Shown here piece by piece: positions 7,010-17,050 of a stretch of DNA of 21,799 nt. Position 1 is the stretch's first letter. Each line of letters opens with the position of its first letter. The notes under the pieces are model-generated. The model was not told the origin of the DNA and did no database searches. It was given only the letters and a program-made list of their open reading frames with translations. The translations under genes were made by a program, and so were the position numbers. Source of the DNA: a virus (lineage: Duplodnaviria > Heunggongvirae > Uroviricota > Caudoviricetes); IMG/VR virus record IMGVR_UViG_2690316325_000016; one strand, 5' to 3'.

Positions 7010-7048
7010 GACAAAATCAATATAAACAGCCCCTCCGGAGAGGGGCTG
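7010..7048 (-). terminator. Intrinsic terminator-like hairpin plus U-tract for minus-strand transcription
   Basis: 9 bp GC-rich stem cagcccctc/gaggggctg with cgga loop, followed on minus strand by TTTATATTGATTTTG. Confidence 0.5.
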
Positions 7049-7272
7049 GAGAGTGGCGCTATGTGCCATTGCATGGTGCCGGGTGCCTCCCGGTGAATTC
7101 AGTACCAGCACCTGAATCCGCGATTATCCCATATACCTACTCGCTGATTGCCCCTCCGCACAGGGGGATTCACCATGCCAGTTTCTTTTAACAAACTCCC
7201 CGCAAACCAGACAACAGTCAACCGCCTGAATTGTGAAGTATTTAAAAATTTCTCCCGCTAACTGATACCCGG

Positions 7273-7906: not shown

Positions 7907-7980
7907 CGCGCTGTACTGGATTCGAACCAGTGACCGATTGCTTAGAAGGCAATTGCTCTGTCCGGCTGAGCTAACAACGC
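7907..7980 (-). tRNA. tRNA-Arg (anticodon UCU), CCA not encoded
   Basis: Cloverleaf parsed by hand: acceptor GCGTTGT/ACAGCGC, D-arm GCTC/GAGC, anticodon loop CTTCTAA, T-arm ACTGG-TTCGAAT-CCAGT. Confidence 0.9.
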
Positions 7981-8080: not shown

Positions 8081-8156
8081 TGGTGGCCCTTGCTGGATTT
8101 GAACCAGCGACCTGGCGATTATGAGTCGCTCGCTCTCACCACTGAGCTAAAGGGCC
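8081..8156 (-). tRNA. tRNA with CAU anticodon, ileX-like (tRNA-Ile2, lysidine) rather than Met; CCA encoded
   Basis: GGCCCTTTAGCTCAGTGGTGAGAGCGAGCGACTCATAATCGCCAGGTCGCTGGTTCAAATCCAGCAAGGGCCACCA; close to recalled E. coli ileX. Confidence 0.85.
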
Positions 8157-10999: not shown

Positions 11000-11155
11000 T
11001 TACTCCTCAGGTTCGTAAGCTGTGAAGACAGCGACCTCCGTCTGGCCGGTTCGGATTCGTACCTCGCAGAGGTCTTTCCTCGTTACCAGTGCCGTCACTA
11101 TGACGGTTAAACAGATGACGATCAGGGCGATTAACATCGCCTTTTGCTGCTTCAT
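11000..11155 (-). CDS. hokD: Hok-family type I toxin (HokD/RelF-like), 51 aa
   Basis: MKQQKAMLIALIVICLTVIVTALVTRKDLCEVRIRTGQTEVAVFTAYEPEE; AAGGAG SD; overlapping short mok-like ORF 11152-11211. Confidence 0.85.
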   Translation of the reverse strand: MKQQKAMLIALIVICLTVIVTALVTRKDLCEVRIRTGQTEVAVFTAYEPEE

Positions 11156-11413
11156 AGCCTGCTTCTCCTTGACCTTTCGGTCCGTAAGAGGCTAATCTCT
11201 ATGTGTCGCATAGATATGGCCTCAGATTAATGTTAAGCGTCTTGCAGGACGCGTAATGTTAACTGGGGCTTTTCTCTATCTGCCTTTTGGTGTTCATGCC
11301 TGAGACAGATAGCCTCAAGCACCCGCAGTCATTCTACTTAACTAAGATTTCCCCGCAAACCGTTTTTGTCCGGCACAGTAAATATCCAACTAAACCAATG
11401 GCGTTCGCTGTAT

Positions 11414-13398: not shown

Positions 13399-14373
13399 TT
13401 ACCCCCTGAAGCCCGGCGGAATTTCGTTATCCGGTTCAGAAATATGATTCACACAACGCTGGTTGTTCGTGCCGCTTACCGGGAGCAGCCAGGGGTTTTC
13501 AAAATTCCGGTCCGGTCCAAAAAACGTCGTCGCTCGCTGAACAAATTCCGTTCCCGTTTTCCCGGTAGCCGCAAGGTATCTTGCGTAACGCCTCACGCCA
13601 TCCAGCATGGCCTCTGGTGGCACCCCCTCGCGTAATCTGGCTTTCCAGGCACTGAAAGCGGATTTCTTCGGGTTTGCCCCGGCACGCAACGGGTATTCCC
13701 GCCAGACCTGTTCGAACACATCAGGATAATCCACTCGTCCCACAGGCTGCCCGGTGTTTTCCGGGACTACCCGATCGGCTTCCCGCTGAATGGCGGAATC
13801 GGCTTCCGGTGTCGTGCCTGCGGGCTGGCCAGGAGTGACGGTCTGAACATCCCCTGCCTGGTTCGTGGCGTTTTTTACGCCATGGACCATAGTGTTTTGA
13901 TCTTCTTGATCTGTATCTTTATCTGTATCTTTATCTGTCGTGACTCGTCGTGACATGTGCGTGACATTTCGTGACTCGCCGTGACAATCGCCATTTTGTT
14001 CCCGCTTTCTTTCCCTCTCTCGCTGCGCCCTCTTGCGCTCTGCCGGAGATTTTGCGGTTTGCGAAATATTGCCGTTGTCCTCTTTCAGCACCTGGCGTTT
14101 TTCCCATCCAGTGATTAAATCACCATCAAGTACCCGCCCCTGCATCGTCTGCAAAATTGAATCAATTACCTCTTCTGTCACGTCGAGCGCACTTGCCAAA
14201 TCTTCTGTCGTGACATCAATGTGACCTCGCGTGACATTTCGTGACGCGCTCACCAGGAGGTGGATATACACTGCCATCACTGTTGCAATTGGCTGCCCTG
14301 ACACCCTGGCAATTGTTCGCCACTTAGGGTCATTTGGCATGTCATGCCATAATCTGAGCCAGGCGTTAGCCAT
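13399..14373 (-). CDS. Putative phage replication initiator (O-like), containing internal iteron arrays
   Basis: 324 aa from ATG 14373 (GAGGTGA SD); position after cro/cII; acidic DKDTDKDTD linker; phased CGTGAC repeats inside gene. Confidence 0.55.
   Translation of the reverse strand: MANAWLRLWHDMPNDPKWRTIARVSGQPIATVMAVYIHLLVSASRNVTRGHIDVTTEDLASALDVTEEVIDSILQTMQGRVLDGDLITGWEKRQVLKEDNGNISQTAKSPAERKRAQRERERKREQNGDCHGESRNVTHMSRRVTTDKDTDKDTDQEDQNTMVHGVKNATNQAGDVQTVTPGQPAGTTPEADSAIQREADRVVPENTGQPVGRVDYPDVFEQVWREYPLRAGANPKKSAFSAWKARLREGVPPEAMLDGVRRYARYLAATGKTGTEFVQRATTFFGPDRNFENPWLLPVSGTNNQRCVNHISEPDNEIPPGFRG
13939..13985. repeat. Iteron-like array: five CGTGAC repeats at about 10 bp phase
   Basis: Copies start at 13939, 13949, 13960, 13970, 13980; preceded by tandem tctttatctgtatc repeats. 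Confidence 0.6.
14209..14245. repeat. Second iteron-like array: four (C/T)GTGAC repeats at about 10 bp phase
   Basis: Copies at 14209, 14220, 14230, 14240; inverted copy GTCACG near 14176. Confidence 0.55.
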
Positions 14374-14444
14374 ACTCACCTCTTCTGATACCGAATCTTT
14401 TTACTCACGAGTTGCCGGAAGCGATTCGATATGGCTATTGTCAG

Positions 14445-14870
14445 TCAATGTACTGCCACAGCATTTCCTGCCGGGCCACCACGGTTCATCTGATTGAAAC
14501 CGGCGATTGCCACTGCGACAAAATCATCAGCGTCTCTCACCAGTCGCTCCCGCGTCTCCACCAGCTCCCGAAAATAAGCTGAACTGTGGCTGCGCATTCT
14601 GGCCACCAGCAAAGGTGGCATTGCCTTTTCGATCGCTGGTAACAACGCCTGAATTTTTTCAACTGCATCAGGGGTGTCTTTCTCTACCCAGCGGAAAATT
14701 TTCTGGGTATTGCGAGCCAGGGCTTCCGGATGGCTGTCGTCATACAGTTCCGGGAACGTCATTCCCAGCTCGAAATACGCTTTGGTAATTTTCGCAGCCG
14801 GTACTTTTTCGCCGTCCGGATGCGCCCAGGCATTCATCGCCATGCGGATGTGTTCATGCTTGATTTTCAT
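14445..14870 (-). CDS. CII-like regulator (YdaT family)
   Basis: N-terminus MKIKHEHI... resembles recalled Rac YdaT; AAGGGGGG SD; directly downstream of cro-like gene. Confidence 0.65.
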   Translation of the reverse strand: MKIKHEHIRMAMNAWAHPDGEKVPAAKITKAYFELGMTFPELYDDSHPEALARNTQKIFRWVEKDTPDAVEKIQALLPAIEKAMPPLLVARMRSHSSAYFRELVETRERLVRDADDFVAVAIAGFNQMNRGGPAGNAVAVH

Positions 14871-15096
14871 GAATCCCCCCTTGGTTAGAAGGCGGATTAT
14901 GATCAGAACCGGGAATGACAACCGTCGGTATGTGTAACTCATATTTGAGCGCCCCGGCAGTGACTGCCTGAATTAGCAACGCCCATTTCCACGGAACCTC
15001 TTCCCCCCACATGCTGACTGTGGTTTTTGACGTTCCTAGAGCTGCGGCTGTTTTAACAACTCCGCCAAAATAGCCTAATACTTCTGATTTTTTCAT
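14854..15096 (-). CDS. Cro-like HTH repressor (YdaS/DicC position)
   Basis: 81 aa, GGAG SD, divergent from cI; HTH segment GGVVKTAAALGTSKTTVSMW. Confidence 0.7.
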   Translation of the reverse strand: MKKSEVLGYFGGVVKTAAALGTSKTTVSMWGEEVPWKWALLIQAVTAGALKYELHIPTVVIPGSDHNPPSNQGGIHENQA

Positions 15097-15187
15097 GAGT
15101 CGCTCCATAAAACTGAACGTCAAAAGTTTAATAATCAAAACCAAAGAAAGTCAAGAAACAAAACCATCTGTGTTTTAAAATCAAAAC
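15097..15187. promoter_or_regulatory. Immunity-region operator/promoter (OR-like): TGTTTT-N6-AAAACA operator overlapping cI start, degenerate copy at 15125-15142, candidate PR -35 TTGACT on minus strand
   Basis: Perfect palindrome at 15171-15188; minus-strand -35 at 15149-15154. Confidence 0.45.
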
Positions 15188-15826
15188 ATGAGCAAGCAAA
15201 CTATATCTGAACGCATAACCCAACGTATGCATGCGCTAAACCTGAAAGGCAAAGACCTTGTCAATGGCACTGGCGCATCAAAAGGCTCCGTAAGTCAATG
15301 GATGAACGGTGGAGGAGCGCCGTCCTCGCGTTACATAAGTTCACTGGCAAAAATATTGAAAGTAAACGAAAATTGGCTTCTTAATGGAGGAGAGTTAAAT
15401 ACAGGTGATTCGCTTGATCTATCTTTACCGCCGATAAAAACGGTTCCGCTACTATCACTTCAGCAGGCAGCAAGCTGGAGTGATTATATGAAAAATTCCT
15501 CAATAACCTCTTGTGTGCAGCTTGTCGGAGAAATCCCGGTCAATACCTTTGCAGTTGTTCTAGAGAGTGACAGTATGTCAACATCTGGTGGGGGAGTTTC
15601 CATCCCAAATGGTTCAACAGTTTTTGTTGATCCCGATCGAACCGTACAACCAGGAAATATTGTCCTTGCCTTACCCAAAGGGACCACAACACCTGTCATT
15701 CGTAAACTGGAGATAGAAGGGCCGGATATTCTTTTAGTCCCCACGAATCCTCGCTACCCTTCAATTATGCTGGATGATCTATCTTGCATATTGGGCGTAT
15801 GCTTTAAAATTCAACAAGATATTTAA
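15188..15826 (+). CDS. CI-type prophage repressor (N-terminal HTH_XRE + C-terminal S24 LexA-like peptidase domain)
   Basis: 212 aa; HTH at N-terminus, catalytic Ser-Lys region in C-terminal half; divergent from cro. Confidence 0.85.
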   Translation: MSKQTISERITQRMHALNLKGKDLVNGTGASKGSVSQWMNGGGAPSSRYISSLAKILKVNENWLLNGGELNTGDSLDLSLPPIKTVPLLSLQQAASWSDYMKNSSITSCVQLVGEIPVNTFAVVLESDSMSTSGGGVSIPNGSTVFVDPDRTVQPGNIVLALPKGTTTPVIRKLEIEGPDILLVPTNPRYPSIMLDDLSCILGVCFKIQQDI

Positions 15827-15890
15827 CCAACCTCATCTATTTGATTAACTGTATGCCATCGTGGTGATGGCTTAACAGCTGCCTGCTTAA

Positions 15891-15939
15891 AATGTTTTGA
15901 TAAAAAAACATTGACCTGAAAAGTTTGTTTTTCTAAACT
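15891..15939 (+). promoter_or_regulatory. PL-like promoter with overlapping operator
   Basis: Inverted repeat AATGTTTT-N6-AAAACATT (15891-15912) overlapping -35 TTGACC (15911-15916); 17 nt spacer; -10 TAAACT (15934-15939). Confidence 0.45.
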
Positions 15940-16118
15940 TCATTCATTCCCTCACCCCATCCTACAGAATGCAGGGCAATACTTCGAGTTACCAGGCAGT
16001 GGTCAGGGGTTAAGTAGCCAGCCCGAGGCGTAAGAACATGACGGCAGGGTTCAACTTTAATAACTATGCAGCAGGTTTTTGTTCCGCTACCCCGGCGTTA
16101 AGGGGAAATGAGGTCAGC

Positions 16119-16992: not shown

Positions 16993-17050
16993 TTTCTGGT
17001 GACGTTTGGCGGTATCAGTTTTACTCCGTGACTGCTCTGCCGCCCTTTTT
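16993..17050 (+). ncRNA. dicF: DicF small regulatory RNA (ftsZ-targeting), processed from dicB operon transcript
   Basis: Sequence TTTCTGGTGACGTTTGGCGGTATCAGTTTTACTCCGTGACTGCTCTGCCGCCCTTTTT matches recalled DicF; terminal hairpin plus U-tract; correct spacing between ydfC and dicB. Confidence 0.8.

Follow-up and report, generated by a model that had tools for sequence, protein, structure and literature searches.

The stretch of DNA studied here (the window; 21,799 nucleotides (nt), IMG/VR virus record IMGVR_UViG_2690316325_000016) contains the immunity switch of a lambdoid E. coli prophage of the Qin/Rac-like type, and the subject of this report is a set of 18-bp sites in that switch that are predicted to be operators. 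Positions 14800–16100 show 99.9% identity with phage vB_EcoS-640R1 (accession number ON470612). An open reading frame on the + strand (15188..15826) encodes a cI-type repressor of 212 amino acids (aa), which by its Pfam and PDB matches has an N-terminal helix-turn-helix domain (HTH_3, recognition helix SKGSVSQW) and a C-terminal S24 domain. Divergent from it on the − strand (14854..15096) is cro, an open reading frame of 80 aa that belongs to the P22_Cro type (Pfam) and displays the recognition helix SKTTVSMW. Three of the 18-bp sites lie between the two genes, in a region termed OR, and two lie downstream of cI, in a region termed OL.

An earlier reading of this DNA, made from the letters alone (the sequence-only reading), had pointed to the inverted repeat TGTTTT-N6-AAAACA. 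Exact copies are indeed present at positions 15171–15188 (TGTTTTAAAATCAAAACA) and 15893–15910 (TGTTTTGATAAAAAAACA). The scan for further copies that had been proposed was run on both strands of the 21.8 kb and yields those two exact matches only. The number expected by chance is 0.01, and none of 100 shuffled sequences has two or more. Both copies are intergenic, one on either side of cI. The repeat had been called a perfect 18-bp palindrome; its palindromy is limited to the 6-bp arms, and the central 6 bp are not palindromic.

The OR region has three 18-mers at a spacing of 23 bp, which overlap the −10 and the −35 of PR and the proposed cI promoter (PRM). ORa (OR3-position, 15171..15188; arms TGTTTT and AAAACA, spacer AAAATC) is one of the exact matches. 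It ends at 15188 with the first base (A) of the cI start codon, as had been noticed before, and the site spans positions −17 to +1 of the proposed PRM. ORb (OR2-position, 15148..15165, AAGTCAAGAAACAAAACC; AAGTCA and AAAACC, spacer AGAAAC) is 23 bp from each neighbour. Only its right arm fits the motif, the left arm being replaced by the PR −35. ORc (OR1-position, 15125..15142, AGTTTAATAATCAAAACC; AGTTTA and AAAACC, spacer ATAATC) is a degenerate copy that the sequence-only reading had placed at the cro promoter; it exists there, over the PR −10. The left arm, AGTTTA, is identical in four lineages and is the PR −10 TAAACT on the − strand. With 3 mismatches ORc is not significant by itself (28 matches with 3 or fewer mismatches in the window vs. 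16.8 expected), and it is accepted as a site because it is conserved in relatives. The PR-like promoter of cro, found by a promoter scan (15125..15154, − strand), consists of a −35 TTGACT (15154..15149), an 18-bp spacer and a −10 TAAACT (15130..15125). These are the same hexamers and spacing as in PR933P, the corresponding promoter of prophage CP-933P.

At OL the promoter scan gives a PL-like promoter (15911..15939, + strand) with a −35 TTGACC (15911–15916), a 17-bp spacer and a −10 TAAACT (15934–15939). It recurs in the relatives described below and in CP-933P, and it drives the ydfA-dicF-dicB-exonuclease-xis-int operon. OL2 (15893..15910; arms TGTTTT and AAAACA, spacer GATAAA) is the second exact match and lies at about −53 to −36 of PL. 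It was previously said to overlap the −35; it actually abuts TTGACC, with a gap of 0 bp. OL1 (15922..15939, AGTTTGTTTTTCTAAACT; AGTTTG and TAAACT, spacer TTTTTC) covers the PL −10, which forms its right arm. The arms that overlap −10 elements read TAAACT and not AAAACA because they double as −10 hexamers, and the promoter-overlapping sites look degenerate because their arms must also act as −10.

Two of the sites, OL1 over the PL −10 and the half-conserved ORb over the PR −35, are additional to those in the sequence-only reading. Its proposal of a repressor operator set shared by OR and the PL-like promoter is supported by the comparative evidence given below; the set itself was incomplete, there being five sites and not three. 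The family consensus of the 18-bp sites is [T/A]GTT[T/C][T/A]-N6-[A/T][A/G]AAC[A/T/C], with the core GTTT-N8-AAAC. This core occurs 6 times in the window vs. 0.57 expected; four of the six are OR or OL sites, OL1 among them.

Close homologs are of little use for footprinting. Eighty IMG/VR loci and most of the metagenome loci are 98%–100% identical, and OR is almost invariant in the 84% variants as well. A word-indexed protein search yielded 12 clusters only, all with at least 72% identity; the family is narrow at that sensitivity. Diverged lineages are represented by L088 (Symbiopectobacterium purcellii), which is the sole distant locus from a scan of genome contigs, by L169 and L193 (IMG/VR contigs) and by L197 (a metagenome contig). 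Their cI proteins are 39%–47% identical to that of the window and keep the helix SKG[SA]VSQW.

The four relatives all display three OR 18-mers, at 22–23 bp spacing, and in each of them ORa ends with the first base (A) of the cI start codon. The AGTTTA arm of ORc is again the PR −10, and ORb, again half-conserved, carries the PR −35 (TTGATC). At OL, an OL2 site is found 4–6 bp upstream of a TTGACA −35, and the right arm of OL1, TAAACT, is the PL −10; the OL1 equivalents are TGTTTT-N6-TAAACT and TGTTCA-N6-TAAACT. Sequence and comparison show that the five sites are present at these positions and are conserved, and that they overlap promoter hexamers and the start codon.

Arms and spacers were compared in four lineages (the window, L088, L169 and L193). 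The arm cores have a pairwise identity of 93%, with 35 of 40 columns invariant; the spacers have 44%, with 4 of 30 columns invariant. Conserved arms with drifting spacers are the pattern expected of half-sites contacted by a protein. A matrix of the arms only, built from L088, L169 and L193 alone, ranks window sites 1, 2, 3 and 6 of 21,782 positions; OL2 has the top score in the window, OL1 is third and ORc is sixth. Scores of 12.6 or more are reached by 6 matches in the window vs. 0.6 in simulated sequences. In an unbiased enumeration of all 4-mer dyads in the four lineages, GTTT-N8-AAAC is the top dyad and is found in 7 of 8 regulatory regions.

A comparison within E. coli covered 187 loci with 62 distinct sequences. 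ORa and ORb are invariant, the three OR sites and OL2 taken together are essentially so, with OL2 itself nearly invariant, and the substitutions fall between the sites. Two control loci have other arrangements. L247 (Ga0265319_1036149), which encodes a homolog of the N-terminal domain with the helix SSGMYSQW, has ACTAAGA repeats upstream instead. L249 (metagenome VFSW01123909.1), which encodes a 121-aa helix-turn-helix protein with the same recognition helix (SKGAVSQW) and without S24, has GTTTAG/CTAAAC repeats in a different arrangement.

Other candidate elements in OR were set aside. An everted dyad, AAAC-N7-GTTT, appears in all four compared OR regions and is a mere by-product of the fixed ORb–ORa spacing. 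A fourth OR site in the cro 5′ untranslated region, like IR4 of CP-933P, finds no support in the window; an extra TGTTGA-N6-TAAACT abutting ORc is present in L193 only.

The window cI matches lambda cI over both domains (E-value = 7.5e-10) and, in its N-terminal domain, the 434 repressor and P22 c2 (PDB). Cro homologs in six compared lineages display SK[TS]TVS[MLI]W, which is near-identical to the cI helix. In lambda, 434 and P22, cI and Cro with a shared recognition helix read one operator set. The 18-bp sites are predicted to be operators common to the cI-type repressor and the P22-Cro-type Cro, and it is very probable that these 18-mers are cI/Cro operators.

Several points weigh against this. 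ORb has one good arm only and a matrix rank of 223. Close E. coli relatives differ from one another in the left arm of OL1 ([A/T]GTT[C/T][A/G]), and the window has a minority variant: AGTTTG is found in 4 of the 187 loci, AGTTCA and AGTTCG being the commonest. Positions 15922–15927, together with 15917–15921, are the most polymorphic regulatory DNA among near-identical E. coli copies (24 variants). The distance between the centres of OL2 and OL1 is 29 bp in the window vs. 33–35 bp in relatives, and because of this difference conserved pairwise cooperativity at OL is not evident. The best palindrome in OR is on the cI promoter and not on PR, which would be odd if arm symmetry predicted cI affinity. 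In addition, the sites in relatives were chosen by eye with the window motif as guide, so that the matrix test is not fully independent, and part of the conservation is inheritance because the relatives are homologous modules. The model as a whole, operators together with a leaderless cI start (discussed below), has an estimated probability of about 0.7.

The position of the best palindrome also enters into another explanation, in which the inverted repeats are mainly Cro sites and cI reads an overlapping but different pattern. The arm-perfect repeat is at the OR3 position, where lambda and 434 Cro bind best. A candidate for the other pattern is the 9-bp sequence A[T/A]CAAAAC[A/C], a direct repeat every 23 bp in OR that is found once in OL2; ATCAAAAC or AACAAAAC is present on the cI-proximal side of each OR site in direct orientation. 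There is a parallel in CP-933P, where the footprints of PaaR2 and YdaS overlap and the sets of inverted and direct repeats were not assigned to their readers by the authors (PMC8630535). This explanation is nevertheless improbable: cI and Cro have a recognition helix in common, and arms on both sides are conserved across lineages in ORa, ORc, OL1 and OL2. Far less probable still is that the palindromes arose by chance in promoter DNA rich in A/T (as UP-element-like tracts) or are bound by a host factor and not by the phage regulators. Both regions are A/T-rich and OL2 is where an UP element would sit, but the chance expectation for exact matches is 0.01, as given above, and the spacers, which are just as A/T-rich as the arms, drift where the arms are conserved. 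In E. coli, in Symbiopectobacterium and in unassigned viral/metagenomic contigs the motif goes with the repressor helix, and it is absent beside the homolog with a different helix. It is not known to resemble the consensus sequences of CRP, FNR, LexA, TyrR, Fur or IHF. The regulator YdaT was ruled out as a binder of the 18-bp sites; the YdaT motif, TTGATT-N6-AATCAA (PMC9986795), lies elsewhere (14860–14877).

The overlap of ORa with the cI ATG depends on the position of the start codon. In ON470612 the cI start is annotated at 15227 (internal Met14, 200 aa). That start would delete helix 1 of the DNA-binding domain, and the start at 15188 (212 aa) is supported by sequence comparison: the N-terminal 13 residues of cI can be aligned with helix 1 of P22 c2 and of the 434 repressor, the 13 residues preceding 15227 are conserved in homologs of 39%–47% identity, and within the stretch before 15227 some codons of the window and L088 differ synonymously. 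A start earlier than 15188 is excluded because of an in-frame TAA at 15176–15178 upstream of the ATG. The cI ATG is within the operator in all five lineages examined (the window, L088, L169, L193 and L197).

The sequence-only reading had stated that cI has no Shine-Dalgarno (SD) sequence and had suggested a leaderless transcript. The first statement holds, as the 17 nt before the ATG are TGTTTTAAAATCAAAAC and contain no purine-rich SD; L088, L169 and L197 also have none upstream of the ATG. A candidate PRM −10, TAAAAT (15176..15181, + strand), was read from the sequence within the ORa spacer, at −12 to −7 from the ATG, and AATAAT is present in the same register in L088, L169 and L197. The lambda cI mRNA from PRM has been shown experimentally to be leaderless. 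In CP-933P, GATAAT is at −12 to −7 of the ATG of paaR2, the repressor gene, whose mRNA was shown to be leaderless by rapid amplification of cDNA 5′ ends (5′RACE) and N-terminal sequencing (PMC8630535). The cI mRNA in the window is probably leaderless as well, with a predicted start at A15188.

A leadered cI mRNA from a promoter further upstream, with ORa as a downstream operator or roadblock, is possible but clearly less likely. What speaks for it also counts against the leaderless start: a −35 is not recognisable in the proposed PRM, which is absent from the consensus promoter scan, where a + strand match at 15053–15082 is listed instead; and L193 has no −10 in the leaderless register, its ATG being preceded at 5 nt by an SD-like AAGG and, at a greater distance, by a TATAAT. 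Because of L193, overlap between operator and ATG does not by itself imply a leaderless mRNA. The source of a leadered mRNA would be a promoter inside or beyond cro, a YdaT-activated PRE-like promoter, or the AATAAT in the ORc spacer. In CP-933P a PRE that depends on YdaT is present at the junction of ydaS and ydaT (PMC9986795), and a partial YdaT site is kept at this place in the window. The promoter match at 15053–15082, however, is within chance (3 found vs. 2.2 expected), and transcripts of the PRE type and leaderless PRM transcripts can coexist, as in lambda. In the window, L088, L169 and L197 the lack of an SD goes together with a −10-like hexamer in the exact leaderless register, and CP-933P, leaderless by experiment, has the matching −10/ATG geometry.

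In the proposed switch, ORc would cover the −10 and spacer of PR and ORb its −35. ORa would cover −17 to +1 of a weak cI promoter, whose −10 TAAAAT is in the operator spacer, and the cI transcript, a leaderless mRNA, would have the A of the start codon as its first base. OL1 would cover the −10 and spacer of PL, and OL2 would abut its −35. From this geometry we infer what occupancy would do; the assignment of proteins to sites, the filling order and the transcript start are likewise inferences. Binding of cI, or of Cro at higher levels, to ORc/ORb and OL1/OL2 would occlude the lytic promoters PR and PL, and cI synthesis would be turned off when Cro, or cI in excess, occupies ORa. If lambda and 434 are taken as a guide, Cro would prefer ORa.

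The centres of the OR sites are at −8.5, −31.5 and −54.5 from the cI start. Because no site centre is at −42, PRM activation of the lambda type from the middle site is not expected. A further reading, which appears rather unlikely, is that the wiring of the switch differs from that of both lambda and CP-933P. The array is shifted about 12 bp toward cI, so that the best operator is over the −10 and +1 of a leaderless cI promoter, and no site is in the activating position; the C-terminal domain of cI has Arg in place of the catalytic Lys and lacks an Ala-Gly site. Taken together, these features would make cI a lysogenic repressor with negative autoregulation only that escapes inactivation by RecA-type self-cleavage, and induction would need another route (such as an antirepressor or YdaT).

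RecA-type self-cleavage of cI is doubtful as judged from the alignments. Residue S129 is the Ser of the dyad. Lambda K192 aligns without gaps with R172 (VIRKL), and K173 is adjacent; Arg is found at this position in all E. coli-type variants and Lys in L088, L169 and L193. The lambda cleavage site A111-G112 aligns with A94-A95 of the window cI, and relatives have A-E, A-V or A-A. The doubt arises because of the Arg at the K192 position and because there is no Ala-Gly site.

The closest characterised switch is that of CP-933P of E. coli O157:H7 (PaaR2/YdaS/YdaT) (Jurenas et al. 2021, PMC8630535; Prolic-Kalinsek et al. 2023, PMC9986795). Both have divergent repressor and cro-like genes about 90–97 bp apart; a PR of TTGACT, 18 bp and TAAACT, whose −10 doubles as an operator arm (AGTTTA); a PL downstream of the repressor operon with a −10 TAAACT and a homologous leader; 18-bp sites at regular spacing, some of them one-armed; a recognition helix common to the repressor and the Cro-like protein; a repressor-gene −10 at −12 to −7 from the ATG; and YdaT proteins that are 87% identical. 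The specificity components are different. BLASTP gives no alignment of cI with PaaR2 or of Cro with YdaS. The window cI has an S24 domain, and the window is without the paaA2-parE2 toxin-antitoxin pair. The CP-933P half-site is GTTTAGTAA (GTTTA-N8-TAAAC) with arms 8 bp apart, whereas the arms in the window are 6 bp apart and the inner bases differ. The promoter-proximal operator of CP-933P (IR1) occupies −29 to −12, which is about 12 bp upstream of the −17 to +1 of the window, and only in the window is the start codon inside an operator. The middle site of the window is not at the activating position (−42/−43), whereas activation of the repressor promoter was observed in CP-933P (PMC8630535). 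Supplementary Tables S1 and S2 of that paper contain no operator sequences.

The cro/ydaT junction of the window has a sequence related to the YdaT site TTGATT-N6-AATCAA (GGGATTCATGAAAATCAA, − strand, 14860–14877), with 2 mismatches in the left arm. It is the positional equivalent of the YdaT operator OM of CP-933P (TTGATTCATGAAAATCAA, positions 1395–1412 of L196). Its right arm and spacer are identical to those of OM because they are within the 5′ coding sequence of ydaT, and the two left-arm changes accompany a different cro 3′ end.

In comparison with lambda, the window cI has the same combination of a helix-turn-helix domain and an S24-type C-terminal domain and is homologous to lambda cI. 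Both have a tripartite OR with 23–24 bp spacing between divergent promoters and, beyond the 3′ end of cI, another set of operators at PL, and an mRNA start at the AUG of cI is proposed for the window as in lambda. The differences are several. In its N-terminal domain the window cI belongs to the 434/P22 (HTH_3) type, and the fold of Cro is P22_Cro; the operator sequence is unrelated; OL has two sites and not three. ORa extends over both the −10 and the +1 of PRM, while OR3 of lambda is at about −27 to −11, and the geometry is unsuited to activation from OR2. YdaT is present in place of CII, and cI has Arg at the K192 position and Ala-Ala at the cleavage site.

The N-terminal domain of the window cI aligns over its full length with the DNA-binding domains of 434 and P22 c2, and the window Cro is in the Pfam family of P22 Cro. 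The recognition helix SKGSVSQW and the operator sequence are different from those of both phages. The 434 operator is ACAA-N6-TTGT and the P22 operator has half-sites of the ATTTAAG type; the P22 operator length is 18 bp, as in the window.

By these comparisons the window has a different repressor/Cro/operator cassette in a promoter scaffold of the CP-933P type. The predicted DNA specificity is new, and the switch is of an ordinary lambda-style kind that is already well known. A full-text search of the searchable literature for the operator strings gave no relevant paper describing them. As a second, sequence-unrelated example of the CP-933P-type scaffold, the region shows exchange of specificity modules within one scaffold. 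The understanding of how such switches work is unchanged and the conceptual surprise is low; the practical value is in immunity typing. A defined operator set is an immunity-group marker for prophage typing, it lets superinfection immunity between these prophages be predicted, and it names sites for mutation or reporter fusion.

The immunity module is found in 1042 of 5426 complete E. coli genomes (about one in five), and its carriers include uropathogenic strains (e.g. NU14) and O157:H7 strains. The copy in E. coli O157:H7 strain 2159 (L194) is 97.9% identical. Its annotation covers only the C-terminal part of cI, so that cI is disrupted in the O157:H7 copies. In FORC_041 (L195) cI is split and cro is frameshifted.

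Some further features were observed around OL. In L082/L083 and in 6 of the 187 loci the A run of the OL2 spacer has sustained a 1-bp deletion (TGTTTTGAT-AAAAAACA), so that the arms are 5 and no longer 6 bp apart. The cI of L082 has its interdomain linker deleted and is 178 aa long. Between the cI stop and OL2 there is a hairpin, GCCATC-GTGGT-GATGGC (15855–15871); the 84% variants retain its stem and have an altered loop. It is not a canonical terminator, because no U tract follows. In the PL leader (15975–16045) a block is conserved at the nucleotide level, CGAGTTACC...AAGTAGCCAGCCCGAGGCG..GAACATGACGGC, with diverging flanks. This block is common to the present module, CP-933P, Symbiopectobacterium and L169. 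With regard to a role as RNA, the leader gives no Rfam match and its folding energy is not unusual (z = +1.5); its predicted hairpin displays a few compensatory changes and only weak covariation.

On the − strand beyond cro are ydaT (14445..14870), the CII-equivalent regulator (Pfam YdaT_toxin, 87% identity to CP-933P YdaT), and an O-like replication gene (13399–14379). The PL (early-left) operon on the + strand is headed by a DUF1391 (ydfA-type) open reading frame (Pfam) and contains, according to ON470612, ydfC-, dicB- and ydfD-like genes, an exonuclease VIII-like gene, xis and int. The small RNA (sRNA) DicF is within this operon (16994–17045, + strand; Rfam, gathering score). Other Rfam matches at gathering score, all on the − strand, are a sok antitoxin RNA (11153–11324), the STnc100 sRNA (7018–7207) and two tRNA genes (7907–7980 and 8084–8156).

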